In this document: positions 5,823 to 61,808 of the stretch, piece by piece
How the letters are laid out: each line of letters opens with the position of its first letter
Numbering within the stretch: the first letter of the stretch is position 1
Assembly: GCA_036845805.1 (NCBI GenBank)
Contig: DAIUDD010000002.1
Coordinates: 55,868 to 119,867 of the forward strand
Length of the DNA: 64,000 bases
Reading direction: 5' to 3'
Source of the DNA: Patescibacteria group bacterium
GTDB lineage: Bacteria > Patescibacteriota > Patescibacteriia > UBA2196
The notes under the pieces: generated by a model
Told to the model about the DNA's origin: nothing
The model's database searches: none
The model's input: only the letters and a program-made list of their open reading frames with translations
Position numbers and translations under genes: made by a program

Positions 5823-7700
5823 CTAAGATAGAACTGCTTTAATTCTTCTCACGCCGGCTGAACTGGCTTCTTCTTTAATAATTTTGAAAGCCCCGAGTTC
5901 GCCGGTATTTTTGACATGTGGCCCACCGCAAATTTCACAACTAAAATTTTCAGCTAAATTATTCGGGTCGCACACAGAATAAACTTTTACCTGATCGCCA
6001 TATTTATCAGCAAAGACGCCAATCGCACCTTTGGCTTTAGCTTCCGTGACAGTCATTTCTTCGCAAGTTACATCCATCTTCTTATTTATCATTTCATTAA
6101 CCAAATCTTCCGCTTGCTTAATCTGCTCCGCTGTCATTTTTTCACTATGGGAAAAATCAAACCGCATTCTCTCTTCGGTAATATTGGAACCTTTTTGATA
6201 AATATGAGGACCCAATACTTTGCGCAAAGCAGCATTCAATAAATGGGTGGCAGTATGATATTGGGTCACTTTTTCGGAATGGTCAGCCAGGCCGCCTTTA
6301 AATTTTCCGGCCGCGGCTGTGCGTGAAAGTTCCTGATGTTTTTGCATTTCAATATTAAAACCACTTTCATCAACTGCCAATCCTTTTTCTTTGGCCAACT
6401 CTTTAGTCAATTCCAAAGGAAAACCAAAACTTTGGAATAAATTAAATGCTACAATTCCCTTAATTTCTTTATCTCTGGTTGCTTCAGCAACCATCCCGCC
6501 ATGGCGGGATGAAAGCGGAGCTTCCAATTTCTTAGTTTCTTTTTCAAATTCCTTTATTCCCTCTTGCAACGTCTGAGTAAATTTTTCTTCCTCCACCTGT
6601 AAATTATCAAGCACAAATTTACGGCTACGATCTAATTCCGGATAAACATCATTCATTAAATTAATTACCACTGTCGCAATTTGGTGAGTAAAATTTTCTT
6701 TAATGCCAAGCAGGCGGCCATGGCGAATGGCACGACGAATTAATTTCCGCACCACATAGCCTTGGTCCACATTAGCGGGCGCAATACCATGATCATCGCC
6801 CATAATAAAAGTAACCGCCCGCAAATGATCAGCAATAATGCGCATCGATCTGATAGTCCCCTCCTTTTCAAGGAGGGGCCCATGCCCCGCAGGGGCAGAG
6901 GGGGTGGTTATGTATTTTTGCCCAGATAACTCTTCAATCTTTTGAATAATTGGTAAAAATAAATCTGTTTGATAATCATCATCCAAACCACTTATCACGG
7001 CTAAATTTCTTTCCAAGCCAGTGCCATTATCAATGTTTTTTTGATTGGCTGGTTTATATTTATTCTCCCCTATTTTTTCGTATTGCATTAAAACATCATT
7101 GCCAATTTCTACCCAGCGCTTGTCCGAGGGATCAAAAACTTTTGGCGCTGGTCCTTTTTTATCAACCCAATAAAACATCTCGGTGCACGGGCCGCAGGGG
7201 CCAGAATTGCCAGTTGGTTCCCACCAATTGTCTTTTTTGGGCAAAGATTTAATTCTATCTTGATCAATTCCGAGTTTTTTCCAAATTTCAATTGATTCAT
7301 CATCGCGTGGCGCATTTTCATCACCAGCAAAAACAGAGACGGCCAAAAATTTTTTATCCAAGCCAAGCTCCTTTGTAACAAACGCAAAAGTCATTTTCAA
7401 GGCTTCCTCTTTCCAATAATCTCCTATTGACCAATGACCGAGCATTTCAAAAAATGTGTGGTGAAAGCCGTCGCCGACTTCATCAATGTCACCAGTGCGA
7501 ACGCATTTTTGCGAATTAACTAGTCGCGCGCCAGCTGGATGTTTTTCGCCAAGCAAAAATGGCACGAGCGGGCTCATGCCGGCAGTGGTAAATAAAATTG
7601 AGGGATCATTTTCTGGAATTAAAGAAGCGCTCGGGATTTCTGCATGCCCATTTTTTTTAAAAAATTCAATGTATTTTTGCCGCAATTCTTTAGAAGTCAT
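5823..7700 (-). CDS. alaS: Alanyl-tRNA synthetase, short form (625 aa): catalytic, tRNA-recognition and editing domains present; no C-Ala domain
   Basis: N-terminal class II motifs, internal HTATHLLNAALRKVLGPHIYQKGSNITEERMRFDFSH editing-domain signature, and a metal-binding C..C.GGPHV site near the C-terminus. Confidence 0.9.
   Translation of the reverse strand: MTSKELRQKYIEFFKKNGHAEIPSASLIPENDPSILFTTAGMSPLVPFLLGEKHPAGARLVNSQKCVRTGDIDEVGDGFHHTFFEMLGHWSIGDYWKEEALKMTFAFVTKELGLDKKFLAVSVFAGDENAPRDDESIEIWKKLGIDQDRIKSLPKKDNWWEPTGNSGPCGPCTEMFYWVDKKGPAPKVFDPSDKRWVEIGNDVLMQYEKIGENKYKPANQKNIDNGTGLERNLAVISGLDDDYQTDLFLPIIQKIEELSGQKYITTPSAPAGHGPLLEKEGTIRSMRIIADHLRAVTFIMGDDHGIAPANVDQGYVVRKLIRRAIRHGRLLGIKENFTHQIATVVINLMNDVYPELDRSRKFVLDNLQVEEEKFTQTLQEGIKEFEKETKKLEAPLSSRHGGMVAEATRDKEIKGIVAFNLFQSFGFPLELTKELAKEKGLAVDESGFNIEMQKHQELSRTAAAGKFKGGLADHSEKVTQYHTATHLLNAALRKVLGPHIYQKGSNITEERMRFDFSHSEKMTAEQIKQAEDLVNEMINKKMDVTCEEMTVTEAKAKGAIGVFADKYGDQVKVYSVCDPNNLAENFSCEICGGPHVKNTGELGAFKIIKEEASSAGVRRIKAVLS
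6856..6912. repeat. Family-2 palindromic element (cccctccttttcaaggagggg ... cagagggggtggttat) inserted in-frame inside alaS
   Basis: Same hairpin plus ggggtggtta module as the intergenic copies at 7712-7801, 26577-26650 and 26781-26945; encodes the extra segment TPSAPAGHGPLLEKEGT just before the conserved RIIADHLRA block. Confidence 0.7.
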
Positions 7701-7711
7701 GTGGTGTTGTT

Positions 7712-7801
7712 AGTCCCCGCCTTATGAAGGCGGGGCCTCATGTTCCACCACCCTTGTGGTGAGTGGAACAGAGGGGGCGGTTAATAAGATCGCCGATAGG
7801 C
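7712..7801. repeat. Family-2 palindromic element, intergenic copy upstream of alaS
   Basis: gtccccgccttatgaaggcggggc shows compensatory changes relative to the cccctcc/ggagggg copies, so the stem is conserved; shares the 3-prime module ggttaataagatcgccgataggc with the 26577 copy. Confidence 0.7.
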
Positions 7802-7847
7802 AAAATAAATGTTATTTATATAATTTTTATTTTAACAAAAATTGACT

Positions 7848-7900
7848 AAAAAAGCAATTTTAAATATCAAAAAACCGCTTGTCTAACAAACGGTTTTTTG
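7848..7900. terminator. Bidirectional terminator-like hairpin (aaaaaccgcttgtctaacaaacggtttttt)
   Basis: Stem aaccg/cggtt flanked by an A-run and a T-run. Confidence 0.45.
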
Positions 7901-7924
7901 TCTTATCTTTCATTCGCCAACCAT

Positions 7925-8195
7925 TTTTATCTCAAGAGAGTTTGGTAGATAAAATTAATAATGATTGACGAGTGAAAGAAAGGAACTGGCTAAATTGTGA
8001 TATTCTCCGTTCCTTATTGTTTTTAAAACCCCAAAAAAGGGGTGCGAGCTCGGTATCCGGATCTGTGAATATTGGATACCTTCCTGAACTGTGTCTGGTA
8101 CTCGCGCCAGACAAGGGAAGTTCTCACGTCTATAACTTCCGAACGTAGTCATAGCTTACGGCGTATGACCGCCTTTTTAATAAGTCTCTGGTGTA
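7925..8195. ncRNA. Putative structured non-coding RNA at the 3-prime end of a high-GC island; strand and family unknown
   Basis: At least five perfect 6-7 bp stems within 270 nt (aaggaac/gttcctt, acccc/ggggt, ggtatcc/ggatacc, ggaagtt/aacttcc, gtcata/tatgac); one longer stem needs a U-G pair on the plus strand; no long ORF; no match to tmRNA, RNase P or SRP signatures that I can recognise. Confidence 0.25.
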
Positions 8196-8196
8196 T

Positions 8197-9003
8197 TTAA
8201 CCTCTTCGGCAATCCGAGGAGATCACCAGAAAAGATGTTTCTTCTGTGCCGTAGGCTGGAAAAAACACTGCTTTAGTTTCCCCTCTCCTTACTTGAGAAA
8301 CTGCAGTATTAATATCATATGGGGATTTCCACCCTCTGCGTTTCCGAACAAATCTATTAGGCCGAATAAACTTACCCGGACATTCGTGCCCAGATAATTC
8401 ATCCGTGCCTTCTTCGGAAACAACAACCACAACGTCGCAAGAACAGATTTTTTTCCCGTCGCTACTGATTGCAACGGCTCGGTCAAAATCGCTCTCGGCG
8501 TTTTTTGCGATTGACTTAACTGCTAAGGTGAGTCTCTCTAACAAAAAGCTCCGAGCCTCAATGTCATCCCAGCGAAATAGCAATGCCAAGACAACATCGG
8601 CATTGGTAATTGACCGAATTCTTCTGCCAATTACCTCGCATTGTGCGACGCCGGCTTTTCCTCGGTATTCCACCAAGTAGGCATCAATCGCACCAAAAAC
8701 ATTTGGCAACCCGTAGATATTGGCTAAATCTCCACGGATTAGCCAATCAGCCAACCCACTAGTGAGAGCCGCAAAAGATTTCTTTAGGAATCTGGTGACA
8801 ACCCCGTCCCACTGAAAGTGAGTGGTGTTAAACGGAAATACAATTTCCGCCGCATTCAACCATGCCTGTTTCCAGGACATCACGGCCGAATACCCAGCTC
8901 CAGTGGCTGGTCGTTTTTGAAGGTAATTTAAGGGATCTTTAATCCCAAAAACTTCCTCTAGCCGGTTGGCCACAAAGGCCAATTTTTTTTCTTCTAGATT
9001 CAT
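8197..9003 (-). CDS. Hypothetical protein (268 aa) in a high-GC island; no family recognised
   Basis: Long ORF with an AGGAGG RBS; local GC about 45-47% against about 33% genome-wide; contains a Cys/His cluster (CSCD...HECPG); structured leader (hairpins 9028-9042 and 9065-9101). Confidence 0.5.
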   Translation of the reverse strand: MNLEEKKLAFVANRLEEVFGIKDPLNYLQKRPATGAGYSAVMSWKQAWLNAAEIVFPFNTTHFQWDGVVTRFLKKSFAALTSGLADWLIRGDLANIYGLPNVFGAIDAYLVEYRGKAGVAQCEVIGRRIRSITNADVVLALLFRWDDIEARSFLLERLTLAVKSIAKNAESDFDRAVAISSDGKKICSCDVVVVVSEEGTDELSGHECPGKFIRPNRFVRKRRGWKSPYDINTAVSQVRRGETKAVFFPAYGTEETSFLVISSDCRRG

Positions 9004-9218
9004 AACTTCCTCCTAAGAAGTTTGTTCGGGAGCACTACTCCCGTTTGCCTGCTTGACCATCAAGCAGTATTTTGAATACTAAAATAATAATCAAAATACT
9101 GCCTGTGGTAATTTTTTAAAGGACTATTTTCTTCTCTTCTAAAACTTTCCAAAAAATGAAAAGTTTTAGTAAAGAGCCAAAGCAGCGGTGCATTGCTGCT
9201 TTGGCAAAAGCGTGTGGA

Positions 9219-9614
9219 TTACTCCGCATTCTGGAACACGCGTTCCAGAATGGCGAAATAATTTGACTTTTGGTCTCCACTCCCGATATATTGGGAGCAG
9301 ACAGCCACCCATTCGCCACCACCTCGGTTGGTGCACACGAGGTGGGCGTTAGAGGTGGCTGAGCCAAAAGTCAAGCTCAGCAGGTCTTGGGGCCGATAGC
9401 CCTTCCACCCGCCGAACTGGCCATCCAGAAATAAAACATTTTCTGAACGGTCTTCATAGGGGTCTACCACGACATCACGGTAGCCCCACGAGTTGACCGC
9501 GATCCACACGCGATCGATGGCAAAACATTTCTCCTCCTCACCTTGGGTGAGAAGGCGGCTCAACCTGCAGAGTTGCGACTCTGTAAGGAGCCTTGTTTCT
9601 TTTAAAAAACTCAT
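9219..9614 (-). CDS. Hypothetical protein (131 aa), same high-GC island
   Basis: ORF with a GGAG RBS 7 nt upstream of the ATG; high GC; co-directional with the 8197-9003 ORF. Confidence 0.5.
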   Translation of the reverse strand: MSFLKETRLLTESQLCRLSRLLTQGEEEKCFAIDRVWIAVNSWGYRDVVVDPYEDRSENVLFLDGQFGGWKGYRPQDLLSLTFGSATSNAHLVCTNRGGGEWVAVCSQYIGSGDQKSNYFAILERVFQNAE

Positions 9615-10146
9615 AATTTCTCCAATTTTTTAACCGACGCCCAATTGCGCCAGTAAACCAGTATGCTCTGGATTGGAGAATCTTGCCACCGCTTCTATTT
9701 CTTTTTTTAAGAAACAAAAGTGGTGGCAAAAAAAATTTTAAAGAACTTTTTTTCTATTGACTGTGGTGAAGACGATTTTCTTAGTAAGAGGCAGATCAAT
9801 AAACAATGTTTGTTAATATCCGCGTTACTAATGTCTCTCTTCTCCACCACGGTCCTTAGAAACAAAAAAGTCTTCTACTGTTCAAGAGAGAAGACCATAA
9901 TTAATAAATCTAATAAAAATTGACTTGTTGTAGGGCTCGCAGTGCCTACCAGACTGTCTCTCTTGTTTTAATCCTAAATTGTAAAGATTAAAATTTATCT
10001 CACATTTTTTATTTTGTATATCTTATTATAGCACACTTGTATAATTTTGTCAATAGATAGATTGTGTATAAATAAAAAAATTACCTAAAATTAGCTAAAT
10101 TAAAGACGTGATAAATCACGTCTCTACAACCATAATTATTACTTTT

Positions 10147-10180
10147 CCTTAATTTCTTAGTTTCTTAATTTCTCTATTTC
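10147..10180. repeat. Family-6 short repeat, T-rich orientation (ccttaatttcttagtttcttaatttctctatttc)
   Basis: Reverse complement shares 23 identical nt (agaaattaagaaactaagaaatt) with the copy at 12746-12777. Confidence 0.6.
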
Positions 10181-10184
10181 TTTT

Positions 10185-12740
10185 TCATCTCAGATCTCTT
10201 TCATGTGGTGGCGCTTCCACTCCCTCGCCCAACTTAGACCGCTCAAAAATTTCTTTTTCCACTTCGGCTTTAGGCCGACCATATTTAAGGCGGGAAAATT
10301 CACGCGCCGCATGAGCAATTTCGGGATTACCTTTAACCGGCGAGAAAGCTGCCATATTAAATGGCCGGGCGGCTTCGTTATTAATCATTAAACGCACATA
10401 AGCATTAAACTTTTCAATATTCATTAAATCATATTCATTAAAAACCGGCGCAAATTGTTTGGACATTACTTCGGTGTCTTCCACCCCAATCCGATAACAA
10501 ACCATGGTGCCGACATTGCCAAAAACAGCGTCTCTCACTTTAGTGTCATTATTTTTAACAAGCTGGCTGATAAATTGATGCGCCATAATCATATTCAGGC
10601 GATATTTTCTAGCTTCAGCTAAAATGGTGGCAATGGAATCAGTGACATAATTTTGAAACTCATCAATATATAAATAAAAATCATTTCTTTGGTTTTCTGG
10701 TACATCCGCGCGCGATAAGGCGGCCATCTGTAATTTGGAAACAAAAGTTAAGCCTAATAAATCACTATTAACTTCGCCAACTTTGCCTTTGGATAAATTA
10801 ACCAAAAGAATTTTCTTCTGATCCATGGCAGAGCGAATATCAAAACCAGAATGCGGCTGGCCAATAATATTTCGCATCATTTCATTTTCCACAAAACGAC
10901 CAGTTTTGGAAATCACATAGGAAAGCATGTCAGCGGCACTCGAACCGCGCTGGGATTGAGCATATTCTTTTTCCCAAAATGATTTAACTAATAAATCATG
11001 ACATTTAGAGAGTTTGTAATTACGAAATTCTTCATCGGTAAAAATCCGCGCGATTTCCACTAAAGTGCCAGGGTCTTTTTGATCTGACATTAAAAGCAAC
11101 ATGGCATTACGCATATAATGCTCAAACATCGGGCCAATCATGGACGGATCAGTGACTAATTTATAGAAAATGGCAATCATTTCCTGAACAGCAAAATCTT
11201 GCTCTTGGGGAGTTTGGGCATCCAACATATTAAGGCCAACCGGACGATCAATGTCTGAAGGGTCAAAATAAATCACATCTGCTAATCTTTCTTTGGGAAT
11301 GGCAGGCAAAATATCATCAATGCCGTTGCCGTGCGGATCAATATAGCAAACACCTTCGCCGTTTTGAATATCTTGTACCGCCATGTTAACCATTAAAGTG
11401 GACTTGCCTGTACCGGTCATCCCAATAATATACATGTGTCGGCGGCGATCGTCGCGTTGTAATTTAACAATAGTTTCTTTGCCGCGATAAATATTTTTGC
11501 CTAAGATAATTCCCTCCTCTGGCATATTGACTGGCGCTGGCGCTTTTCTGGCCCCCAACCAATAAATATTAGGGGTGGGGCAAGAGGGTAAGGGAAAATG
11601 AAACAAAGAAGCCAACTCTTCGGTGTTTAAAATAAAGGCAGACTCGGCTCTAAATTGCCGATGAATTGAATCGGAAATGGTGCGCTCTGATTTTTTTACT
11701 AAAGCCTTAAAACCATTGCCATACTCATAGATATTATATTGGCCAAAAGAATTTAAAATATTTTTTAGATTAATTTCGGAACCGCCCTCAAAAGCGCTGG
11801 CCACCACTAAACGCAAATTAACTTGGAGCGCGCCTTTGGAAGATTTTTCTTCCATTGATTTAATTAATTCCTGATCAAATGGCGTTAATTCAGCGTTTTT
11901 ATTAAGCTGATTTTTAGGTTTTTCACCAGCAGTCATCATAGAATGCAAAGAACCAATACTGCCAAAAGTGCCCTCGGCTAATTTATCATACCAAGACTTC
12001 TGGTTTAAACTTTTTAGAACTGTTTCTATTTTTCTGCCAGACATTATTTCTTTAACTGCTTTTCGGCCACGCTTATGCCATTCTTTATGGATGGGTCTAA
12101 TAATTAATTGGATCAACGCTCCTTCTTTTGAACTAAACTTAGACAAACTGTTGGTCGTGGCGTTTAAAGGATCAACTTCCATTTTGCGGTAAGTTTTAAT
12201 TGGCAATACGTCGGGCCGGGTTAGAAGTAAATTAGCAGCCGAAGCATTACCGGTCGGCGTGAATAAATTATAATCCTCGCTAATTTCGGTTTGGGCATGA
12301 GGATATTGAGCTTGAATTTGTTGTTCAACAAATTGGGCTAGATAGGCGGGTACTACCACATAGAAATAAACCAGTTCGCGCTGAGCTACAATTTCTAAAG
12401 AAATCTGATCGTGGCGACCATAAAGCCAAGTATGCCAACCCTTAAGTGGTTTAATGGCAGCAAAGGCCGCCCATAAATTTTCCGCCCAAGAAATTTGTTC
12501 CTGAATACGATTAGGGCCGGTGTTTTGATTTTGAAGCTCGTCTTTACCGGCCGCTGCTTCTTTGGGCACAGTAATTAATAAAATTATTGGGCGAAACTCG
12601 GCGGGTAATTTATAGTGACTTCTCATCCAAGCGCGCCAGAGGTATAAAACAACAATGATTAAAATAATTACGCCAATCAAAAATAACCCAACCACCAAAG
12701 CGGGGTTATTAAAAATTAATGAGGAAAAAGAAGAAGTCAT
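10185..12740 (-). CDS. Membrane-anchored P-loop ATPase of the VirD4/TraD/TrwB (type IV coupling protein)-like superfamily
   Basis: N-terminal TM helix; Walker A IIGMTGTGKST; Walker B-like LYIDEFQNY; large cytoplasmic domain; start set at internal Met (MTSSFSS, 12740) because the upstream part of the ORF runs through a repeat. Confidence 0.65.
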   Translation of the reverse strand: MTSSFSSLIFNNPALVVGLFLIGVIILIIVVLYLWRAWMRSHYKLPAEFRPIILLITVPKEAAAGKDELQNQNTGPNRIQEQISWAENLWAAFAAIKPLKGWHTWLYGRHDQISLEIVAQRELVYFYVVVPAYLAQFVEQQIQAQYPHAQTEISEDYNLFTPTGNASAANLLLTRPDVLPIKTYRKMEVDPLNATTNSLSKFSSKEGALIQLIIRPIHKEWHKRGRKAVKEIMSGRKIETVLKSLNQKSWYDKLAEGTFGSIGSLHSMMTAGEKPKNQLNKNAELTPFDQELIKSMEEKSSKGALQVNLRLVVASAFEGGSEINLKNILNSFGQYNIYEYGNGFKALVKKSERTISDSIHRQFRAESAFILNTEELASLFHFPLPSCPTPNIYWLGARKAPAPVNMPEEGIILGKNIYRGKETIVKLQRDDRRRHMYIIGMTGTGKSTLMVNMAVQDIQNGEGVCYIDPHGNGIDDILPAIPKERLADVIYFDPSDIDRPVGLNMLDAQTPQEQDFAVQEMIAIFYKLVTDPSMIGPMFEHYMRNAMLLLMSDQKDPGTLVEIARIFTDEEFRNYKLSKCHDLLVKSFWEKEYAQSQRGSSAADMLSYVISKTGRFVENEMMRNIIGQPHSGFDIRSAMDQKKILLVNLSKGKVGEVNSDLLGLTFVSKLQMAALSRADVPENQRNDFYLYIDEFQNYVTDSIATILAEARKYRLNMIMAHQFISQLVKNNDTKVRDAVFGNVGTMVCYRIGVEDTEVMSKQFAPVFNEYDLMNIEKFNAYVRLMINNEAARPFNMAAFSPVKGNPEIAHAAREFSRLKYGRPKAEVEKEIFERSKLGEGVEAPPHERDLR

Positions 12741-12745
12741 AAACG

Positions 12746-12777
12746 AGAAACTAGAAATTAAGAAACTAAGAAATTGA
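12746..12777. repeat. Family-6 short repeat, A-rich orientation (gagaaactagaaattaagaaactaagaaattgag)
   Basis: Inverted relative to the 10147 copy; its 17-nt core gaaactaagaaattgag is identical to 26536-26552. Confidence 0.6.
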
Positions 12778-12877
12778 GGGTTTATTGTTTTCGCCCTTAA
12801 TTTCTCCCGCCCGCCTTGCAAGCCAGAGTGCTGTGGGCAGGTTATTTCTGTGTTTCTTTATTTCGTTTTTTTATTAT

Positions 12878-13348
12878 TTATTTCTCTATTTCAAGTATGC
12901 GGTCCGCTTTAATCTTGGCTTCCTGTTCCACAAAAAATCGATTTAGACCAGGAATAATTTTTAGCCATTTTTTGATCAAATTAAAGACTCGGCGAAACGT
13001 AATTTTAGCTGTTTCAATTAATTCAATAATTTTTTTAGCGGTTTGTTCGCCTTCGGCTTTAAAAATTTTTTGCTTTTCCGGCGAGAGTGAAAAATACAAA
13101 TCACCCAAGTCTTCTTCTAAGACTGCTTCAATGTTTTGATGCAGAGGTGTTTTACTAGAGTCAATTCCTGGTGCACCTACTCCCAGATCACTAACGAGCG
13201 GTAAATTTTTTTCTCCAATTTTTTCGACTTGTTCTAAAGGTGGTGCTTCCATGGCCGAGGAAACTGAGATTTCCGATGATTCAAAATCAGACACCCTTTC
13301 CGGTGTTTTAATTTTTTCTATTTTGCCTGGTTGAATAATAGTATCCAC
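12878..13348 (-). CDS. Hypothetical acidic protein (156 aa), upstream of and co-directional with the VirD4-like ATPase
   Basis: ORF only; no family recognised. Confidence 0.45.
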   Translation of the reverse strand: MDTIIQPGKIEKIKTPERVSDFESSEISVSSAMEAPPLEQVEKIGEKNLPLVSDLGVGAPGIDSSKTPLHQNIEAVLEEDLGDLYFSLSPEKQKIFKAEGEQTAKKIIELIETAKITFRRVFNLIKKWLKIIPGLNRFFVEQEAKIKADRILEIEK

Positions 13349-17152: not shown

Positions 17153-17208
17153 TATATATAGTGTGTCATTCCAGCGAAAGCTGGATCCAGAAAAAACAAA
17201 AATAAAAA

Positions 17209-18095: not shown

Positions 18096-19082
18096 ATGAA
18101 CAACGCGCGAAAAAAAAATAAAAAAATAATCTTGGCATTGGCACCAATTGCTGGTTATACCGACAGTGCTTTTCGGGTTCTTTGTTTAGAAAACGGAGCG
18201 GATTTGGTTTACACGGAAATGATTAGCGCGGAAGGTTTAGCCCGCCACAATAAAAAAACATTAGAAATGCTGAATTTTTTACCAGAAGAAAAGCGAGTTG
18301 TGGTGCAACTTTTTGGCAAAAATCCAGAGGCATTTGCAAAGGCCGCGGAAATAATATCAAAGTGTCCGGTGTCAAAGTGTCAAAAAAAAATTTGGGGATT
18401 AGACATTAATCTCGGCTGTCCGGCGCATAAAGTTTTTAAAACCGGTGCCGGCGCGGCACTGATGGATAATAAAAAATTAGCTCGCAAAATTATTGAAGCG
18501 GTTTTGAATAATACCAATTTACCAGTATCCATAAAAATTCGCTCGCGCGTTAAAAACACTACGGCGGAAGAATTTATAAATTATATAAAAGTTTTAGATT
18601 TTAAAATGGTTATGGTACATGGCCGCACACTTTCACAAGGCATGACTGGCGAAATAGATTTTGCCATGATAAAAAAAGTAAAAAATCTATTGCCAGATAA
18701 AATTGTGCTGGGCAATGGCGGTATAGATTCATTAGAAAAATTGCAGGAAATGATTGAAAAAACCGGAGTCGATGGGGTGGGGATTGGCAGAGGCGCTTTG
18801 GGTAGACCAGAAGTGTTTTCTGTTCTCGGGTGTCATCCTTATGAAAATGAGGATCCCCTAGACAAACAAGATCCCCTTTTTCAAGGGGATGACAAAAAGA
18901 ATATTATCCTCCGCCACGCAAAACTATTTTTACAACAAAATTCCAACTTAATTCCCTTGCGCAAACATTTAGTTCATTATTTTAAAGGACAAAAAAATGC
19001 CTCAGAATGGAGGCAAAAGTTAATTAAAGTAGAAACTTGGGAAGATTTAAATTCTGCGTTAGTCGGCGTTAAGTCTGCATAA
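18096..19082 (+). CDS. tRNA-dihydrouridine synthase (Dus family) carrying two in-frame repeat insertions
   Basis: LAPIAGYTDSAFR...VVQLFG...GLDINLGCPAHKV are Dus motifs; the repeat at 18361-18385 encodes KCPVSKCQKK and the palindromic element at 18829-18897 encodes LGCHPYENEDPLDKQDPLFQGDDKK. Confidence 0.85.
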   Translation: MNNARKKNKKIILALAPIAGYTDSAFRVLCLENGADLVYTEMISAEGLARHNKKTLEMLNFLPEEKRVVVQLFGKNPEAFAKAAEIISKCPVSKCQKKIWGLDINLGCPAHKVFKTGAGAALMDNKKLARKIIEAVLNNTNLPVSIKIRSRVKNTTAEEFINYIKVLDFKMVMVHGRTLSQGMTGEIDFAMIKKVKNLLPDKIVLGNGGIDSLEKLQEMIEKTGVDGVGIGRGALGRPEVFSVLGCHPYENEDPLDKQDPLFQGDDKKNIILRHAKLFLQQNSNLIPLRKHLVHYFKGQKNASEWRQKLIKVETWEDLNSALVGVKSA

Positions 19083-21971: not shown

Positions 21972-22015
21972 AAAATTTTATTTTTAATTTAAAAAATTTA
22001 TTTCCTTTGCATCCG

Positions 22016-22130
22016 TAGGGACAGGTTTGAAACCTGTCCCTACAAAATAATTTTTATAGTGGAGACGGGTTTGGTATTATCCCGCGATTAGTGGGACCAC
22101 CAAACCCAAGGTTGCGAACTGTCCCTACGA
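22016..22130. repeat. Family-3 palindromic element (gtagggacaggtttgaaacctgtccctac ... gaactgtccctac) upstream of dnaK
   Basis: Perfect 12-bp stem; related copies at 27590-27613 and in-frame at 61433-61460. Confidence 0.6.
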
Positions 22131-22241
22131 AAAATAACATTAAAATTGTCATCCTGAACTTGTTTCAGGATCTCTCTATATAAAATTTTTTTTAAAATAA
22201 TGAGATGCCGAAATAAATTCGGCATGACAAAACATATAGTA

Positions 22242-24158: not shown

Positions 24159-24238
24159 ATTTTTTAATAAGATGTCATTCCAAGCGAAGCGAGTAATTCC
24201 AGCTTCTTTGGAATAAATTAATTAATTATTATAATTTT

Positions 24239-24294
24239 GTAACTCCGGTCTTTAGACCGGATTGGATTTATCCGGATCTAAAAATCAGAGTTAC
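24239..24294. repeat. Family-5 palindromic element (gtaactccggtctttagaccggatt...gagttac)
   Basis: Copies also at 30276-30301 and in-frame at 61583-61613. Confidence 0.55.
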
Positions 24295-25738: not shown

Positions 25739-25841
25739 ATGTCATTCTGAGGAGCAAAGCGACGAAGAATCCCATATTATCCATGACTGACGGGCTTCCC
25801 TCGTCCCCCACTAGGTTTAGTGGGGGAATCGGAATGACATT
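25739..25841. mobile_element. Family-1 MITE-like palindromic element with terminal inverted repeats aatgtcattc / gaatgacatt, between hrcA and grpE
   Basis: About 103 bp; perfect 10-bp TIRs; internal hairpin cccccactaggtttagtggggg; the hrcA stop codon lies in the right TIR. Confidence 0.65.
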
Positions 25842-26532: not shown

Positions 26533-26567
26533 TTAGAAACTAAGAAATTGAGAAATTAGAAACTAAG
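26533..26567. repeat. Family-6 short repeat, A-rich orientation (gttagaaactaagaaattgagaaattagaaactaag)
   Basis: 17-nt core identical to 12761-12777; inverted partner at 27653-27690. Confidence 0.6.
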
Positions 26568-26576
26568 GGTTCCAAG

Positions 26577-26650
26577 CTCCCCTCCTTTTCAAGGAGGGGC
26601 GATAGAGGTGATAGCCTCATCGGGGTGGTTAATAAATCGCCGATAGGCGG
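26577..26650. repeat. Family-2 palindromic element
   Basis: cccctccttttcaaggagggg + ggggtggttaataaatcgccgataggcgg. Confidence 0.7.
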
Positions 26651-26742
26651 ATAGTTTCCCTTTATTTCTCTTTTTCTTTATTTCTTAATTACTTTTTCAT
26701 TTATCCCCAACTTTTTTAATCTATTTCCATTATACAAAACAA

Positions 26743-26769
26743 TTAGCACTCGTGTCAAGCGAGTGCTAA
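26743..26769. promoter_or_regulatory. CIRCE operator (HrcA binding site) ttagcactc-N9-gagtgctaa
   Basis: Perfect match to the CIRCE consensus TTAGCACTC-N9-GAGTGCTAA, upstream of hrcA-grpE. Confidence 0.85.
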
Positions 26770-26780
26770 ATGGATTAGCA

Positions 26781-26945
26781 GTCCCCTCCTTTTGAAGGAG
26801 GGGCCTTAAGCCCGAAGGGCTAAGGTGGTGGTTATGGTATTTAGAATTAATTTTATCTTAATGTTATAACCACCCCCGTCTCTGCTTCGCAGAGTCGCCC
26901 GTTAATGTTTGCCGTTGTGGCAAACATTAACTTTAAAAGGAGGGG
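26781..26945. repeat. Composite family-2 palindromic elements (two hairpin modules plus the perfect hairpin gttaatgtttgcc-gttgt-ggcaaacattaac)
   Basis: cccctccttttgaaggagggg ... ggtggtggttat and, inverted, ataaccacccccgtctctg. Confidence 0.65.
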
Positions 26946-27062
26946 ATAAAAAGCTAATTTTAGCCAAAATTTCTATTAGCTATTGACATAATAATAATAA
27001 GATATAATGGTGACATAAATTTTTTAACTTTTTCACAAATCACAAATCAGGGAGGCAAAAAA

Positions 27063-27490: not shown

Positions 27491-27652
27491 AATTGTCATC
27501 CTGAACTTGATTTAGGATCTCCCAGAATAAGTTTGTCTCAGAGTAAGGGGGTGCTAAAATAAATTCAGTATAAAAATATAAATAAAAATGGACAGGTCGC
27601 GACCTGTCCCTACATCACACTTCATTATTCTCTGTTTATTACTTTTTTGCCA

Positions 27653-27690
27653 CCCTTAATTTCCAATTTCTTAATTTCTAGTTTCTATTG
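27653..27690. repeat. Family-6 short repeat, T-rich orientation
   Basis: Reverse complement reads caatagaaactagaaattaagaaattggaaattaaggg; overlaps the rnhA stop codon. Confidence 0.55.
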
Positions 27691-30259: not shown

Positions 30260-30306
30260 GGATATCTTATCTAATTAATCCGGCTTGAAGGCCGGAGTTA
30301 CAAATT

Positions 30307-34121: not shown

Positions 34122-34181
34122 CCTGAACTCCGATGAATATCGAAGTGATAGGATCCCGTATTATATTAGGGGTAATTATTT

Positions 34182-34758: not shown

Positions 34759-34852
34759 AATTGTCATCCTGAACGATTAGTGAAGGATCTCATTTAAATT
34801 CTTCGCTGAGTTTCGATCACGAGTACTCGGAACTCCACTAAGAATGACAATA
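34759..34852. mobile_element. Family-1 MITE-like element (TIRs aattgtcatcc / gaatgacaat)
   Basis: About 94 bp with 10-bp terminal inverted repeats. Confidence 0.6.
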
Positions 34853-42080: not shown

Positions 42081-42133
42081 TTTAAAAAATTATGATAAAG
42101 TTAAAACAGAATAAATTAAATTAGTGTCTAGCT

Positions 42134-42172
42134 ACGGGATTCCTCGTCGCTTCACTCCTCGGAATGACAACC
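42134..42172. repeat. Family-1 palindromic element half-site that supplies the gatB start codon
   Basis: acgggattcctcgtcgcttcactcctcggaATGACAACC; the ATG of gatB is the atg of ggaatgaca. Confidence 0.55.
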
Positions 42173-43750: not shown

Positions 43751-44719
43751 TTATTTTAAAAAAAGATTAACCAATTTTTCCGCTGAATCATAATTTTTTA
43801 CCCACTTAATTCTTTTATCTCTTTTAAACCAAGTCAACTGGCGTTTGGCAAATTGATGAATGGCAATTTTTAATAATTTAATCATTTCTTCTTTGGGATA
43901 CTGACCGCGCAAATAGCGAGAAATATAGCGATATTCCAAACCAAAATCATCCAACCGCTGCCAACTGACTCCTTTTTGGTGTAACAGTTCTATTTCTTTA
44001 ATCATCCCCTCTCTCAGACGCTCATCAACCCGCTGGTCTATTCTTTGATTAATAATTTCACGGGGAAATTTAATGCCAATAATAAGCGGATTAAAAAGCG
44101 GGTTTTTTTTCTGCCGCAAAGCAGAAAACTTGTGTCCAGATAAACAAACCTCAAGTGCGCGGTCTAGACGTCGTGGGTTTTTAGTATCTACAAATTCTAA
44201 AGCGGCTGGATCTAATTTTTTTAATAATTTTATTTTTTCCAAAGTTTCCATTTTTTCGATTTTTTTTCTCAATTTTATGTTGGGCTTAACAGCGGGAATA
44301 TTATAATTATCAATCAAAGCGGAAAGATAAAGGCCGGTACCGCCAACCACGATGGGCAATTTACCACGCGCGATGACATTATTAATGGCTTTTAGTGCTA
44401 ATTTTTTATATTTAGCGACATTAAATTTTTGATTCGGATTAACCACATCAATTAGATGATAAGGGACAAAAGAATTGTCATTCCGGACTTGATCCGGAAT
44501 CCACTTATTTTTATTTCTGGATCCCAGCTTTCGCTGGGATGACAAACTATATTCGCTCAAATCTTTGCCAGTGCCAAGATCCATGCCGCGATAAACTTGT
44601 CTCGAGTCAACAGAAATAATTTCGCCATTAAATTTGGCAGCTAATTTGACAGCTAATTTTGTTTTACCAGTAGCTGTGGGACCGAGAATAACAATGATTT
44701 TTGGTTTTAATATTGACAT
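43751..44719 (-). CDS. miaA: tRNA dimethylallyltransferase with an in-frame palindromic-element insertion
   Basis: P-loop GPTATGKT, ISVDSRQVYRGMDLGTGK; the element at 44475-44546 adds about 27 aa (LSEYSLSSQRKLGSRNKNKWIPDQVRNDNSF) between the GTGK and HLID motifs. Confidence 0.85.
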   Translation of the reverse strand: MSILKPKIIVILGPTATGKTKLAVKLAAKFNGEIISVDSRQVYRGMDLGTGKDLSEYSLSSQRKLGSRNKNKWIPDQVRNDNSFVPYHLIDVVNPNQKFNVAKYKKLALKAINNVIARGKLPIVVGGTGLYLSALIDNYNIPAVKPNIKLRKKIEKMETLEKIKLLKKLDPAALEFVDTKNPRRLDRALEVCLSGHKFSALRQKKNPLFNPLIIGIKFPREIINQRIDQRVDERLREGMIKEIELLHQKGVSWQRLDDFGLEYRYISRYLRGQYPKEEMIKLLKIAIHQFAKRQLTWFKRDKRIKWVKNYDSAEKLVNLFLK

Positions 44720-54636: not shown

Positions 54637-54644
54637 GCCATAAA

Positions 54645-56521: not shown

Positions 56522-56530
56522 ACATAAAAA

Positions 56531-56560
56531 ACACCTTGAAAATAACAAGGTGTTTTTTAA
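56531..56560. terminator. Bidirectional terminator (acaccttgaaaataacaaggtgt)
   Basis: Perfect hairpin with A and T flanks. Confidence 0.6.
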
Positions 56561-56609
56561 TTCATGATATTTAATTATTTGCATTAATTGCCATTAATTT
56601 TAATGTATG

Positions 56610-58453: not shown

Positions 58454-58482
58454 AAAGTTTAATTTTAAATATTAACAAAATA

Positions 58483-60057
58483 CTAATTATTTGGCAAGGG
58501 TTGGTATTGGAAGATAAAAATTAAAACAATAAAGCCAATGCCCAAAGGATGATTTAAATAGGGGGTAAAGATATTAACGGCGAGTAAGGCCACTAAGGCG
58601 ATGCCAAATGAATAATGAATTATGAATAATGAATTATGGTTTTTTTGATTTAAGTTTGAAAAATTAGAATTTGTTTCGAATTTTAATAACTTTTTTATAA
58701 TTAAAAAAAATAAATATAAATAAATGCCTAATCCAACTAGCCCAAATTTAAGGATCATATCCAAATAGCCCCACTCAGAAGCATAAGTAGTCACTTCGCC
58801 GCTTTGGCCAGCAGTTTCATTAATTAAGCGCGGGTCAGTGCTAAAATAAGTAAAAGTGGCGCCAAAGCCAGAACCAATTAGAGGGTGTTTTTTTATACCT
58901 TGCCATAAGGGTGTTAATTGATTCAGGCGGGCAGCCGAGGCAGCTTCACCTTGAGTTAAACGTTGGCCTAAAATACTAGCCCAGTCCCCCACTGGTTTTG
59001 GCGGCAAAAAATAAATGGCACTAACCAAAACCAGACTGGCGAATAAAAATAAAATTATTTTTCCAATCTGTTTTAAAATATTAAAAAATTTTTCTTTAGT
59101 GATAATAAAATAAACCAAATAACTAAGCAGGCCGGCGATTAAACCCACCCAGAAACTGCGGGAAAAAGAAATAATTAGCACGGCTAAACAAAAAATTGGC
59201 AATAAAAAATCAATTAAGATTGAATAAATTTTGTGTTCAGTTTTTTTAAATTTTAAACCAACAAACAAAATAAAAAATAAAATTAAAACATAAATTTGCG
59301 CCGGCATAAATATGCGCCAGACATTGCCAGCCACATGAGTAATTTCAGCGACATTGGTATCGCGCACCCATTGATATATTTCCGGCAGAAAAAAAGAAAC
59401 TTGATGAGTAAAAATATAAAATAAAAATATAGTTTTTAAAAAAATAACACTGCCGGCAGCGCATAAAATTGAGATAATGTTTATTATGAATTTGTGTTTA
59501 TTCGTGTTCTTATTGGTGTAGATTAGTGTCATTGGCAGCGCAACTAACCAATACAACCAATTATTAAAATCTAAAAACACATTACCAAAATCATTGCCGC
59601 GAATTATTCCCCAAACAAAGGCCCAGACAACAATGATTGTCATTCCGAGTTCCGCAATTAATGCGGAACGAGGAATCCTGCGGAAAACAGAATTAATTTT
59701 GTATAATGTTTTGCTTTGTTTTTCACGGGATCCTTCGTCGTTAACACTCCTCAGGATGACATTTACTAAAAACACTGCCATCACCACTATAAAAATTCCC
59801 ATCCTTATAGATAAAACCGTGTTACCTAAATCTACCGAAAACAGATATCCTTTAGAACCAACAAATAATTCTGCTAGTAAAATATAAAGGCCATATTTTA
59901 ATTTGTATAAAGATAAAAAAAGCGTGGCTAAAATTATAGCCACAAAACAAACCGTATTTAGCCAATGATTGGCCCAGCTTAAATATGACAAAATTTCTGC
60001 TAAAATTAGCAAAAAAAATGTAATTTTAAAATATTTTTTACTAATAAAACTTGACAT
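58483..60057 (-). CDS. O-antigen ligase/polymerase-like (Wzy/WaaL family) polytopic membrane protein carrying an in-frame palindromic element
   Basis: More than 10 TM helices and a large periplasmic loop; the element at 59636-59762 encodes VILRSVNDEGSREKQSKTLYKINSVFRRIPRSALIAELGMT. Confidence 0.6.
   Translation of the reverse strand: MSSFISKKYFKITFFLLILAEILSYLSWANHWLNTVCFVAIILATLFLSLYKLKYGLYILLAELFVGSKGYLFSVDLGNTVLSIRMGIFIVVMAVFLVNVILRSVNDEGSREKQSKTLYKINSVFRRIPRSALIAELGMTIIVVWAFVWGIIRGNDFGNVFLDFNNWLYWLVALPMTLIYTNKNTNKHKFIINIISILCAAGSVIFLKTIFLFYIFTHQVSFFLPEIYQWVRDTNVAEITHVAGNVWRIFMPAQIYVLILFFILFVGLKFKKTEHKIYSILIDFLLPIFCLAVLIISFSRSFWVGLIAGLLSYLVYFIITKEKFFNILKQIGKIILFLFASLVLVSAIYFLPPKPVGDWASILGQRLTQGEAASAARLNQLTPLWQGIKKHPLIGSGFGATFTYFSTDPRLINETAGQSGEVTTYASEWGYLDMILKFGLVGLGIYLYLFFLIIKKLLKFETNSNFSNLNQKNHNSLFIIHYSFGIALVALLAVNIFTPYLNHPLGIGFIVLIFIFQYQPLPNN
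59636..59762. mobile_element. Family-1 MITE-like element (TIRs attgtcattccgag / ctcaggatgacat) inserted in-frame in the Wzy-like gene
   Basis: 127 bp with about 13-bp TIRs; preserves the reading frame (42 codons). Confidence 0.65.
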
Positions 60058-60129
60058 AATAATAATAATAAGCTAAGATGGGTGCAAATACTTATGACAG
60101 TGGTCGTAAACATACCAAAAAGGAGGGTG

Positions 60130-60557: not shown

Positions 60558-60565
60558 GTTACGGG

Positions 60566-60600
60566 TCACCGGTGAAACCACCGGTGATTTTTTATTTTTT
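60566..60600 (+). terminator. Terminator (tcaccggtgaaaccaccggtga + T-run)
   Basis: Perfect 9-bp stem plus T-run. Confidence 0.65.
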
Positions 60601-60686
60601 TATCTTCTACCAACCTTTAGTTAAGGGTCGGTTCCGATTTATCAGGGCTTTTATTTTTATTTAATTTTCGGTAACACTACTCTTTT

Positions 60687-60773
60687 TTGTCATCCTCGTT
60701 CACCTTTTGTCATCCTCGCGAAAGCGAGGATCTGGGTATTTTTTTGGATTTCCGGTTAGATCGGGAATGACAA
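60687..60773. mobile_element. Family-1 MITE-like element (ttgtcatcctcg ... gggaatgacaa)
   Basis: Duplicated left TIR (ttgtcatcctcg twice) and a gaatgacaa right end. Confidence 0.55.
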
Positions 60774-60782
60774 ATAAAAATA

Positions 60783-61808
60783 TCACAAATCTTTACTCTT
60801 ACCTACTTTTTTTCTAATCCCTGCTATGCTATCAATGATAGTTAAAAATAAATTAGTGGGTTGCGCGAGCCAGAGAATAAAAAACTGCCAAAAGGGTTTA
60901 TGTTTTTTAAAATAATGGTATAACGACCGGTTAAAATTAATCTGCTTGCGCAAACTTGGCCAGTGTTTAAAACTTTGCTCTTTGTGATGAATAATTTGCC
61001 AGGCTGGATAAAAATAAATTTGATAACCCACGTCTTTAGCTCTTTTACAAAAATCAACTTCTTCAAAAATCGCCCAAAATTTTTCATCAAATAAGCCAAT
61101 TTTTTCAATAACTTCTTTTTTAATTAACATGGCCGCGCCCATCACCTGATCCACGGCCATATTTTTGTCATGATTAAAATCCAACATAAAATATTGGCGC
61201 GCGGCTTTAAATTTTTCCGGCCAGAAATTATAAAATTTTAATTGAATTAATAATTGGTCTGACAACTTGGGGAATTGGCGACAAGAGCGTTGAAGCGTGC
61301 CATCAGAATTTAATAATTGCGGGCCGAGAATACCAATATTCTTGTTTTTAATCATAAAATCAATGGCAGCTAAAATTTTATCACTAATAAATTCAGTATC
61401 GGGATTAAGTAGAAGAATGTAATTATCTTGTTGTCGGGACAGGTCGCGACCTGTCCCGACGAGTAAAACAGAATTTAGAGCTTGATTATTGGCTTTAGCA
61501 AAACCCACATTTTTTTGATTAATAATAATTTCTAAATTATCCGAACTAAAGTTCGGAGTTACATTAAAAACAGCACCATTATCTGTAACTCCGGTCTTTA
61601 GACCGGATTGTACGGCCAAAAATTCTTGCACTGCCCTAACTGTACCATCAGTTGAATTATTATCTACTAAATAAATTTTCCAATTCACTTCTGACACTGG
61701 ACGCTCTGACACTTTGACACCTTTTTTCATATATTCAAAAACGGACTTTAAACATTTTAAAGTCAATTCGCGCGTATTCCAGGAAACAATAATAATATTT
61801 AAAAACAT
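60783..61808 (-). CDS. Family 2 glycosyltransferase containing three in-frame repeat insertions from three different families
   Basis: GT-A motifs IIVSWNT, YLVDNNSTDGT, LLLNPDTEF; inserts: family-4 at 61689-61722 (VKVSERPVSEV), family-5 at 61583-61613, family-3 at 61433-61460 (VGTGRDLSR). Confidence 0.75.
   Translation of the reverse strand: MFLNIIIVSWNTRELTLKCLKSVFEYMKKGVKVSERPVSEVNWKIYLVDNNSTDGTVRAVQEFLAVQSGLKTGVTDNGAVFNVTPNFSSDNLEIIINQKNVGFAKANNQALNSVLLVGTGRDLSRQQDNYILLLNPDTEFISDKILAAIDFMIKNKNIGILGPQLLNSDGTLQRSCRQFPKLSDQLLIQLKFYNFWPEKFKAARQYFMLDFNHDKNMAVDQVMGAAMLIKKEVIEKIGLFDEKFWAIFEEVDFCKRAKDVGYQIYFYPAWQIIHHKEQSFKHWPSLRKQINFNRSLYHYFKKHKPFWQFFILWLAQPTNLFLTIIDSIAGIRKKVGKSKDL

Follow-up and report, generated by a model that had tools for sequence, protein, structure and literature searches.

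Tagged hairpin repeats, a GIY-YIG nuclease cassette and in-frame repeat copies in a Patescibacteria genome

Introduction

The CGTC-tagged superfamily of repetitive extragenic palindromic (REP) sequences is defined by a CGTC, TGTC or CCTC tag, an 8-9 bp stem starting with AT, a loop of 4-5 nt and a CCA-type tail (Di Nocera et al. 2013, PMC3733652). Here we describe hairpin repeats of this kind, together with several other families of short repeats and a small GIY-YIG nuclease gene situated between two of them, in a stretch of 64,000 nucleotides from a genome of the Patescibacteria, or Candidate Phyla Radiation (CPR). This stretch (contig DAIUDD010000002.1, positions 55,868 to 119,867) is called the window in the following.

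In the survey of Di Nocera et al. the Neisseria repeat dRS3 and two of the Rickettsia palindromic elements (RPEs), RPE-4 and RPE-6, were placed in the CGTC superfamily. REP ends were found to supply stop codons, and intragenic REPs lying in frame and coding for 20-30 residues were reported from several phyla; REPs situated after stop codons were thought to act as RNA elements. The occurrence of several families in one genome has likewise been described, for Rickettsia conorii and Opitutus terrae (PMC3733652).

The repeats were recently renamed NTS/SRM, and SsnA, a GIY-YIG protein of 94 amino acids (aa), was found to bind the folded repeat on single-stranded DNA (ssDNA) only (Chenal et al. 2025, Nat Commun, PMC11893778). 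The cut, studied for Neisseria and Wolbachia homologues, lies a few bases upstream of the tag. In Neisseria the C following the palindrome is critical for binding by SsnA and the three bases preceding it for cutting. SRMs are found near 71% of the SsnA homologues, on both sides in 42%, and Ssn together with the NTS modulates transformation in Neisseria (PMC11893778).

REPs and RPEs lying within genes, the families defined by tags and the partnership with Ssn are already published, and the association of GIY-YIG genes with the repeats, at one stage considered as a new finding, was dropped as such because it had appeared in 2025 (Chenal et al., PMC11893778). A search of the literature on in-frame palindromic elements in CPR returned nothing relevant, and no paper linking REPs, RPEs or Ssn to CPR was found.

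Results and discussion

Repeat families in the window

The reading that we favour, with a probability of roughly three in four, is that the window holds a population of REP-type hairpins for which a GIY-YIG cassette acts as an insertion sequence (IS)-like source, and that the copies seen today are those which passed selection, in spacers and in permissive protein loops. An earlier analysis of the letters alone, in the following the sequence-only reading, had proposed RPE-like mobile elements of at least five families lying in frame in conserved genes. The described elements are present where it had placed them, and all five families exceed the numbers expected from shuffled sequences.

Altogether 29 copies were catalogued, 11 of them wholly coding, 3 across gene ends and 15 intergenic. 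Non-coding DNA makes up 11% of the window and carries 15 of the 29 copies; per base the copy density is about 10 times higher there than in coding DNA. CPR genomes are regarded as streamlined, yet these 64 kb hold about 30 selfish-looking hairpin repeats, 11 of them within genes. Several families in one small genome had been called unusual in the sequence-only reading; R. conorii and O. terrae provide precedents. All families are common to the closest relatives (L001, L007, L008 and L011; L numbers denote sequence records of relatives) and fade in more distant CPR. With RPE-1 to RPE-8 the window shares the coexistence of several palindromic families in a small genome, their in-frame position at loops and the intactness of the proteins; the host phylum differs, and the classic RPE-1 measures 100-150 bp compared with mostly 25-90 bp here.

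Family 1 is a TGTC-tagged hairpin

The Family 1 tag TGTCATYC has 22 matches in the window versus 1.84 expected, and none of 100 shuffles reached 22. A unit consists of TGTC, a stem starting with AT, a loop of 4-5 nt or a longer interior, a closing GRAT and a C-rich tail, C(C/T)C and often CCCGT. An alignment of 13 units, taken from the window and its relatives, shows no variation in the T, G, T, C, A and T of the 5' end or in the C following the stem; the positions critical in Neisseria are positions that never vary in Family 1. The inner stem positions vary freely with 98.9% of the cells paired, and 22 double changes were counted compared with 6.8 in shuffles, a count that is biased since the copies were picked because they fold.

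Family 1 shares with the SRM/NTS repeats the tag, the AT-started stem, the short loop and the post-stem C, and it matches the NTS CGTCATTCCCGCGMAVGCGGGAATCYRG. Like the CGTC-tagged REPs, among which it falls in the TGTC variant, it occurs as single units and as inverted dimers, and its ends supply stop codons. By this anatomy Family 1 represents in CPR the CGTC/TGTC-tagged REPs, alias NTS/SRM repeats, and is not a new element. The link to RPE-4 and RPE-6 rests on the superfamily assignment of Di Nocera et al. There are also differences: CPR lie outside the 8 phyla surveyed in 2013, and Patescibacteria are absent from the text of Chenal et al.; the tail is C(C/T)C(G) and not CCA; many units with a long interior fall outside the strict published pattern; and 3 of the 15 Family 1 elements lie wholly within genes (more overlap gene ends), compared with 2% in N. 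meningitidis.

Canonical short stems are found in the units 18871-94, 22147-71, 22205-29, 44476-500, 44521-44 and 60708-31, whereas about half of the units have interiors of 23-48 nt closed by 5 bp. The two arms of a doublet have different stems, each folding alone rather than together as one long hairpin. A looser structural detector gave a count of 31 that was dropped because of AT-rich false positives. The Family 1 copies are listed below, with the strand in brackets where one was assigned.

8562-8590: truncated unit TGTCATCCCAGCGAAA without 3' arm, in frame in an unknown open reading frame (ORF, 8197-9003), identical over 16 nt to the unit 44521-44544
17164-17190 (+): unit downstream of cysS, fits the published SRM pattern
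18831-18894: doublet in frame in dus, coding CHPYENEDPLDKQDPLFQGDD
22147-22229: intergenic doublet of 83 nt, downstream of dnaK
24173-24215 (+): unit upstream of dnaK
25740-25839: doublet occupying the hrcA-grpE spacer
27494-27519 (+): intergenic unit of the type of the L001 cassette 5' end
28102-28140 (+): unit TGTCATTCCGAGGAGTAAAGCGACGAGGAATCCCGTGTG on the 3' side of the GIY-YIG gene
28478-28516 (-): unit on the 5' side of the GIY-YIG gene, coding the last 13 residues of RecJ, CHPERLAKDPVLS
34116-34155 (+): unit over the first ATG of the ackA ORF
34762-34849: intergenic doublet upstream of the PTAC gene
42130-42169 (-): unit whose GAATGACA end forms the start codon of gatB
44476-44544: doublet in frame in miaA, residues 58-82
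59638-59761: doublet in frame in the Wzy-like gene (wzy), residues 99-140
60688-60772: intergenic doublet plus an extra partial unit, of which 60708-60735 fits the published SRM pattern

Hairpins could also be made in place by replication errors that create palindromes, namely template switching or fold-back synthesis at fragile sites, and without any master element. The inner stems, very different between copies yet near-perfectly paired, would agree with this, as would the second hairpins of Family 2 (see below), which are unrelated between copies. Such a process cannot, however, create the oriented parts that copies share, namely the TGTC tag, the tail C(C/T)CGT, the Family 2 box GGGGTGGTTA and the loop CTTGTT, nor does it account for the same families in separate genomes, and we consider it highly improbable.

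The GIY-YIG gene and its cassette

28104-28469 (-): GIY-YIG nuclease gene, SsnA-like, 121 aa (Pfam GIY-YIG, E=8e-13)

Inverted Family 1 units border the gene on either side, and the last 12 codons and the TGA stop of the gene come from the unit 28102-28140. As in the described SRM/NTS-Ssn pairs, a single-domain GIY-YIG gene of roughly 100 aa thus lies between inverted repeats, and the spacing of Y12, Y23 and E70 equals that of Y6, Y17 and E64 in SsnA of N. meningitidis. Homologues amount to 8169 cluster representatives at E<=0.001; many of them, from many metagenomes, carry repeat-encoded tails at the N- or C-terminus, such as VILSEHSEPKDL, RDSSLRSE or SLRMT. NCBIfam gave no name for the window protein.

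Tagged hairpins that are recognised on ssDNA, with the gene of the enzyme situated between inverted repeats, are also a feature of the REPIN-RAYT systems and of the IS200/IS605 elements. The inverted doublets as the likely mobile unit are a further resemblance; the enzyme here is a GIY-YIG nuclease instead of an HUH/Y1 transposase, and no Y1 gene is found among the 60 window ORFs scanned with Pfam.

The position of the gene differs between relatives. L001, a metagenome contig of a relative with a RecJ 72% identical to that of the window and with synteny from secA to hrcA, lacks a GIY-YIG gene between recJ and rnhA; two such genes are found in other places, the first between korA and korB, the second between korB and recJ. 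The two L001 cassettes are 89% identical from TGTCAT to ATGACA but only 49-56% identical outside, and both have units on both sides. RecJ of L001 is without the 12-aa tail encoded by the repeat. In L021 and L022 a GIY-YIG copy lies between wzy and the second glycosyltransferase family 2 (GT2) gene, GT2b, with repeats on the 5' side only; in the L022 repeat, TGTCATTCCCGCGTAAGCGGGAATCCAG, 2 of 28 positions deviate from the NTS consensus of Neisseria.

The doublet 22147-22229 could be compared with the L001 cassettes at both ends. Its 5' end agrees with the cassette ends in 36 of 38 matched positions plus a 3-nt gap, its 3' end agrees with cassette 2 in 27 of 31 matched positions plus a 1-nt gap, and the changes in the stems are compensatory. 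To judge from these matches, the doublet looks like an internal-deletion derivative of the GIY-YIG cassette, comparable to a MITE (miniature inverted-repeat transposable element). A cassette at different loci in relatives and a deletion derivative distinguish the present case from the published SRM/NTS-Ssn pairs. These comparisons support the analogy to an insertion sequence without demonstrating transposition; they indicate a mobility of the nuclease cassette, which Chenal et al. had put forward as a hypothesis, and the formation of miniature derivatives. Ssn nucleases are under development as ssDNA tools. The CPR data supply natural evidence that the cassette moves and spawns miniature derivatives, and they bear on the spread of CGTC-type REPs, which was left open in 2013 and in 2025.

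L001 shows additional insertions. Its recJ (10001-11854) has inserts of 21 and 14 aa including a tandem NLEPT..NN duplication, and in its korA (5343-7226) residue 54 is followed by one more Family 1 unit (IHPERVPKGHAEGSHE), which is absent from the window.

Coding copies are mostly lineage-specific inserts

Apart from the three Family 1 doublets in dus, miaA and wzy, the following elements lie within conserved genes.

6455-6541 (-): second insert in alaS, hairpin TCATCCCGCCATGGCGGGATG between AT-rich octamer arrays, coding EAPLSSRHGGMVAEATRDKEIKG
6855-6912 (+): Family 2 element in frame in alaS, coding ITTPSAPAGHGPLLEKEGT (19 aa)
18361-18385 (+): Family 4 array in frame in dus, coding CPVSKCQ
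31417-31462 (-): Family 4 array in frame in korA, coding SECQSVKVSK
61433-61460: Family 3 copy in frame in GT2 (site 3), coding VGTGRDLSR
61538-61609: Family 5 inverted pair in frame in GT2 (site 2), shared with the closest orthologs
61689-61722 (-): Family 4 array in frame in GT2 (site 1), coding GVKVSERPVSE

All host ORFs are intact and each coding copy is read through in frame, with predicted peptides such as CHPYENEDPLDK, LSSQRKLGSR and SGLKTGVTDNGAVFNVTPNF. The second alaS insert and the partner nuclease gene of Family 1 had both been passed over in the sequence-only reading.

Alignment with orthologs revealed in most cases that the element is extra. The 19-aa Family 2 segment of the alanyl-tRNA synthetase (AlaRS) is absent from the closest ortholog, P0002, and seven other orthologs have different palindrome-type peptides at this place. 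In miaA the phmmer match to the structures 2qgn and 3d3q is split at residues 58-82, with 26 query residues unaligned versus 2 of the target. The dus gene, coding for a tRNA dihydrouridine synthase, has two sites, A and B. The Family 4 array at site A amounts to an insert of 7 aa relative to the structure 1vhn; both sites are variable in 21 aligned orthologs, many of which carry peptides of the CHP..., ...GDD or PPLKGG type. The Family 1 doublet 18831-18894 is missing in most orthologs, and other families occupy the same site elsewhere.

The GT2 protein measures 341 aa whereas insert-free orthologs have 292-298 aa, and the three elements of the window explain the difference. The DNA was recovered for 13 orthologs, and the same three sites were found to hold other elements: a long Family 1 unit in L008, Family 1 doublets in L007, L008 and L011, a Family 3 palindrome and a Family 5 pair in L011, and Family 2-like hairpins in L006. 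Family 1 elements occur at site 1 in other orthologs, and L011 has VGTGLDLSL and a Family 1 doublet at site 3, the doublet being directly followed by a Family 3 palindrome. The orthologs of wzy align over residues 1-504, and the gene is therefore whole. Its loop is short in L005, L012 and L009, whereas L011, L007, L015 and L008 have other Family 1 doublets in the same loop; these are read in a different frame, which argues for independent events.

The Protein Data Bank (PDB) holds no useful relative of the GT2 protein. Its AlphaFold model (mean predicted local distance difference test score, pLDDT, 82.6) is confident except for residues 30-41, 68-91 and 118-128, which are the three inserts, each situated between a helix and the next strand; the pLDDT is 51 at residues 31-40 and 39-47 at residues 71-90, with a dip at 118-128. 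The Dus model (mean pLDDT 88.4) is weak solely at the two inserts, with values below 50 at residues 248-263 in the Family 1 doublet, and at the termini. Both models put their inserts in low-confidence loops, which agrees with the placement in surface loops that the sequence-only reading had anticipated.

In korA the situation is different. The Family 4 array is in frame, as had been claimed, but it replaces a variable segment and adds just 3 aa relative to the structure 6n2n. Exactly at this place L001 has a Family 1 unit, and from this exchange the segment is judged to be a replaceable hotspot.

One may ask whether the coding segments are ancestral, or the hosts pseudogenes or assembly artefacts. 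Apart from the small length difference in korA nothing was found in support. Insert-free orthologs exist for alaS, miaA, GT2, wzy and dus, the ORFs are uninterrupted and keep their invariant motifs, two of the proteins give confident models, identical host proteins are recorded on 5-6 contigs from several sources, and the same kind of insert is present in independent assemblies. The checks named in the sequence-only reading refute this explanation, and it can hardly be right. According to the alignments, the frame is intact and the insertion specific to the lineage for the coding copies in GT2 (three), dus (two), alaS, miaA and wzy.

For each protein, 118-120 CPR orthologs (120 for AlaRS) were compared, and a hotspot was counted as occupied if the insert measured 6 aa or more. 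The occupancy is 20% for the Family 2 site of AlaRS and 43% for the site of 6455-6541, 38% for the Family 4 site of Dus and 28% for the other, and 15% for site 3 of GT2. In-frame copies coding for 20-30 aa, including those in genes of tRNA synthetases and tRNA modification, are known from the tagged REPs, for which the reuse of one site by different families was noted just for Xanthomonas recB; the present alignments, of hundreds of CPR orthologs, add the reuse of the same protein loops by different families across CPR. It probably explains many so far unexplained 'CPR-specific insertions' as well as many spurious N- or C-terminal extensions in annotation, and the hotspots map out naturally where conserved enzymes tolerate insertions, which is of use for protein engineering.

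Frame preservation, start and stop codons

We considered two alternatives why the coding copies are in frame. First, the elements could have properties that preserve the frame; second, selection could have removed all other insertions. A bias of coding copies towards lengths that are multiples of three, although expected, was not found: the coding doublets measure 64, 69 and 124 nt from TGTC to GACA, and it is the net indel alone that is a multiple of three. An avoidance of stop codons by GC-rich palindromes was likewise rejected as the cause of tolerance, as an element has on average 2.93 of 6 frames open compared with 2.78 of 6 in random windows. There is no excess of open frames, the lengths are not multiples of three, and non-coding DNA has an about tenfold higher copy density; random or semi-random insertion followed by purifying selection is therefore a sufficient explanation. 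A special mechanism is not needed for frame preservation, and of the two explanations offered in the sequence-only reading plain selection is favoured over a peptide-tolerant mechanism of insertion.

Targeting could nevertheless contribute to the hotspots alongside selection, if insertion took place into or beside resident hairpin repeats or particular single-stranded structures, so that a loop once colonised would attract further families. Targeting to resident repeats is made possible by the existence of composite inserts and by the restriction to few sites. The sites are few and their occupancy is high (the two in AlaRS and the two in Dus), composite inserts are found at GT2 site 3 of L011 and at alaS 6455-6541, several families lie together in the intergenic clusters 22015-22229, 24173-24263 and 26533-26946, and at the korA site one family is swapped for another between relatives. 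However, the models show the GT2 and Dus sites as disordered loops at a distance from conserved motifs, as selection alone would also predict, no conserved target sequence was seen at the junctions, and clustering in spacers is expected as just 11% of the DNA is non-coding. We regard a contribution of targeting as possible but rather improbable.

Element ends had been proposed to donate the stop codons of hrcA, rnhA, recJ and the GIY-YIG gene and the start codon of gatB. The GIY-YIG TGA and the gatB ATG both lie inside GAATGACA, as proposed. For recJ, the Family 1 unit supplies the last 13 codons, and the TAA is situated 3 nt beyond them in the extended tail of the unit. By contrast, the hrcA TAA abuts the TGTCAT end of the doublet 25740-25839 and is not inside it, and the rnhA TAG lies in an AT-rich octamer array, outside the five families. 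The other end of the doublet 25740-25839 likely provides the ATG of grpE. Comparison with L001 suggests that the true start of ackA is probably 5 codons downstream of the element-derived first ATG.

Mycobacterial interspersed repetitive units (MIRUs) are tandem direct repeats that fill operon spacers, the ends of the repeats overlapping with stop and start codons. Likewise, the doublet 25740-25839 fills the hrcA-grpE spacer; it differs in being formed by tagged hairpins and has no sequence relation to MIRUs.

Families 2 to 5 and octamer arrays

The core of Family 2, CCCCTCCTTTTSAAGGAGGGG, has 7 matches at four loci versus 0 expected, with a fifth, reverse copy at 26867-26946. Each element is built of a constant first hairpin, a second hairpin that is wholly different between copies yet always paired, and the constant box GGGGTGGTTA. 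Besides the copy in alaS the following were found.

7713-7783 (+): Family 2 variant (CCCCGCC/GGCGGGG with GGGGCGGTTA), intergenic, upstream of alaS
26576-26631 (+): Family 2 element upstream of hrcA
26780-26834 (+): Family 2 element adjoining the CIRCE operator
26867-26946 (-): Family 2 element, reverse, with an extra internal hairpin

In the variant copy (7715-7783) three positions are co-changed: CCCCTCC/GGAGGGG of hairpin 1 has become CCCCGCC/GGCGGGG, and GGGGCGGTTA stands in place of GGGGTGGTTA in the 3' box. This one copy hints at an interaction of the 3' box with hairpin 1. In a structured RNA or a triplex, pairing of the box GGGGTGG with hairpin 1's purine arm is conceivable, the variant copy being the one case of covariation in its favour.

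A perfect CIRCE operator, TTAGCACTC-N9-GAGTGCTAA, is found at 26743-26769 upstream of hrcA with three Family 2 copies around it. In L001, too, a Family 2 copy lies on the distal side of CIRCE and antisense to hrcA, but its second hairpin is unrelated. The repeats could be mainly functional cis-elements preserved by selection, such as terminators, mRNA stabilisers, operator-like sites or transformation signals, that are not mobile now, the nuclease being domesticated. In agreement with this, many copies directly follow stop codons, like those REPs to which a role as RNA elements has been ascribed, a Family 2 copy by CIRCE and antisense to hrcA occurs in the window as well as in L001 (with differing second hairpins), the Family 5 pair in GT2 is common to the closest orthologs, and Ssn with NTS modulates transformation in Neisseria. 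Left unexplained would be the differences between close relatives in the copies within alaS, miaA, dus, korA, wzy and GT2, the cassettes at different sites in related genomes and the deletion derivative 22147-22229; moreover, no known Rfam RNA family occurs in the window. On balance we think this explanation unlikely.

Families 3 and 5 have the same design as Family 1, a tag with a covarying stem, the tags being GTAG and GTAAC, respectively. GTAG-tagged REPs are known as well (Di Nocera et al. 2013, PMC3733652). Family 3, GGACAGGT-N3-5-ACCTGTCC, has 3 matches and Family 5 has 4, with 0 expected in both cases. Of the Family 3 copies, 22015-22043 reads GTAGGGACAGGT...ACCTGTCCCTAC, 27590-27613 ends in CTAC, and the GT2 copy 61433-61460 has GTCG...CGAC in place of GTAG...CTAC. 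Family 4 had been described earlier as heptad-like and counted among the palindromes. It is neither, but a short tandem array with a period of 8 nt: runs of 3-4 consecutive octamers GYGYCMRR occur in the window solely at 18362-85, 31417-48 and 61690-720.

22015-22043: Family 3, GTAG-tagged palindrome GTAGGGACAGGTTTGAAACCTGTCCCTAC
27590-27613 (+): Family 3 copy, intergenic
24239-24263 (+): Family 5 unit, intergenic
30277-30301 (-): Family 5 unit upstream of recJ

A sixth repeat type consists of AT-rich tandem arrays of the octamer WAGAAAYW. They are found between genes and also in frame, in alaS and in secA (EKLRNKEIKKLRE and EQLRNKEIEG), and flank other hairpin elements in inverted orientation.

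6455-6476, 6526-6541, 10136-10194, 12746-12775, 12842-12892: AT-rich octamer arrays
26533-26562, 26648-26706, 27655-27686, 38973-39017, 39145-39211: AT-rich octamer arrays

Proposed origin and spread of the repeats

Taken as a REP-type population with an IS-like source, the repeats could have arisen as follows. There would be at least five families plus the AT-rich octamer type, each repeat consisting of a short fixed tag, a stem with varying but paired inner bases and a fixed tail. For Family 1 the partner would be the small GIY-YIG nuclease of 28104-28469, and a cassette of repeat, nuclease gene and repeat would act like an insertion sequence. Inverted doublets would be MITE-like internal-deletion derivatives of the cassette and single units remnants of doublets. 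New copies would land widely and selection would purge those that break genes. Survivors would gather in spacers, where they often directly adjoin stop and start codons, and in a small number of tolerant loops between a helix and a strand or between domains; in these loops they may be translated as 7-42 extra residues. The reuse of the same loops by different families across CPR lineages would be a consequence of this filter and, perhaps, of a tendency to insert within or next to repeats already present. We infer that Ssn mobilises Family 1, that the inserts are translated, and that Families 2-5 move in similar ways.

Several points weigh against this scheme. Chenal et al. reported nuclease activity and an effect on transformation, not transposition, and went no further than to raise the analogy to insertion sequences (PMC11893778). 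In Neisseria a change of the palindrome that keeps the hairpin abolished SsnA activity (PMC11893778), and therefore one nuclease may not serve all the divergent Family 1 stems. The strict published SRM pattern is fitted by 3 of about 20 Family 1 units (0 in shuffles), and the biased count of double changes has been noted above. The best solved relative of the window protein, the UPF0213 protein 1zg2, is matched with E=7.5e-4. For Families 2, 3, 4 and 5 no partner gene was found in the window. A Family 2 copy similarly placed near CIRCE in two genomes could point to function instead of selfish spread. No target-site duplication is evident at the junctions read, where the relatives are too diverged for exact empty sites; no transposition event was seen directly and no clean empty site recovered.

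A stronger version would regard the repeat-ssnA-repeat cassette as an active GIY-YIG-driven insertion sequence in CPR, whose derivatives, along with other tagged hairpins, are directed to resident hairpins or single-stranded sites and form a major, partly targeted source of protein-length variation. We put this forward as a tentative proposal, the odds being against it. If true, it would involve GIY-YIG transposition chemistry, which is not established for any bacterial insertion sequence, and repeated colonisation of the same loops of essential proteins across the radiation.

Other features of the window

The window has a G+C content of 36%. For its AlaRS the best named relative is Candidatus Kuenenbacteria and every close homologue is from Patescibacteria, by which the genome is placed as a Kuenenbacteria-like member of the Patescibacteria (CPR). 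Pfam scans of 60 ORFs identified alaS, dus, korA/korB, miaA, the Wzy-like gene, three GT2 genes, rnhA and recJ as well as hrcA-grpE-dnaK-dnaJ, gatB, secA and dnaE, in agreement with the gene identities of the sequence-only reading. Among these 60 ORFs there is no classical transposase, Y1 included. A tRNA scan and an Rfam search at gathering thresholds over the window gave no match to any known RNA family, and NCBIfam no name for nine hypothetical proteins.

The region 7700-12900 has a higher G+C content (41% versus 36%) and contains the unknown ORFs 8197-9003 and 9219-9614, several GC-rich hairpins at 9176-9361 and, between octamer arrays, a gene for a VirD4/TraG-like coupling protein (10185-12821). 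Possibly the region is an integrated element. Between dnaJ and a DUF3467 gene, and away from any rRNA, lies the gene of a 23S rRNA intervening-sequence protein (PF05635, 20959-21396). The ORFs of the ribosomal proteins S9 and S11 and of IF-1 (in the stretches 200-700, 2975-3505 and 4127-4429) have 35-65 residues upstream of their Pfam domains, being either true N-terminal extensions or over-called starts.

Nine records of metagenome-assembled genomes (L009, L010, L012, L014, L015, L017, L020, L023 and L024) are titled 'uncultured Gammaproteobacteria'. Their gene order GT2-wzy-GT2 and the protein identities point to Patescibacteria, and the records are probably mislabelled.

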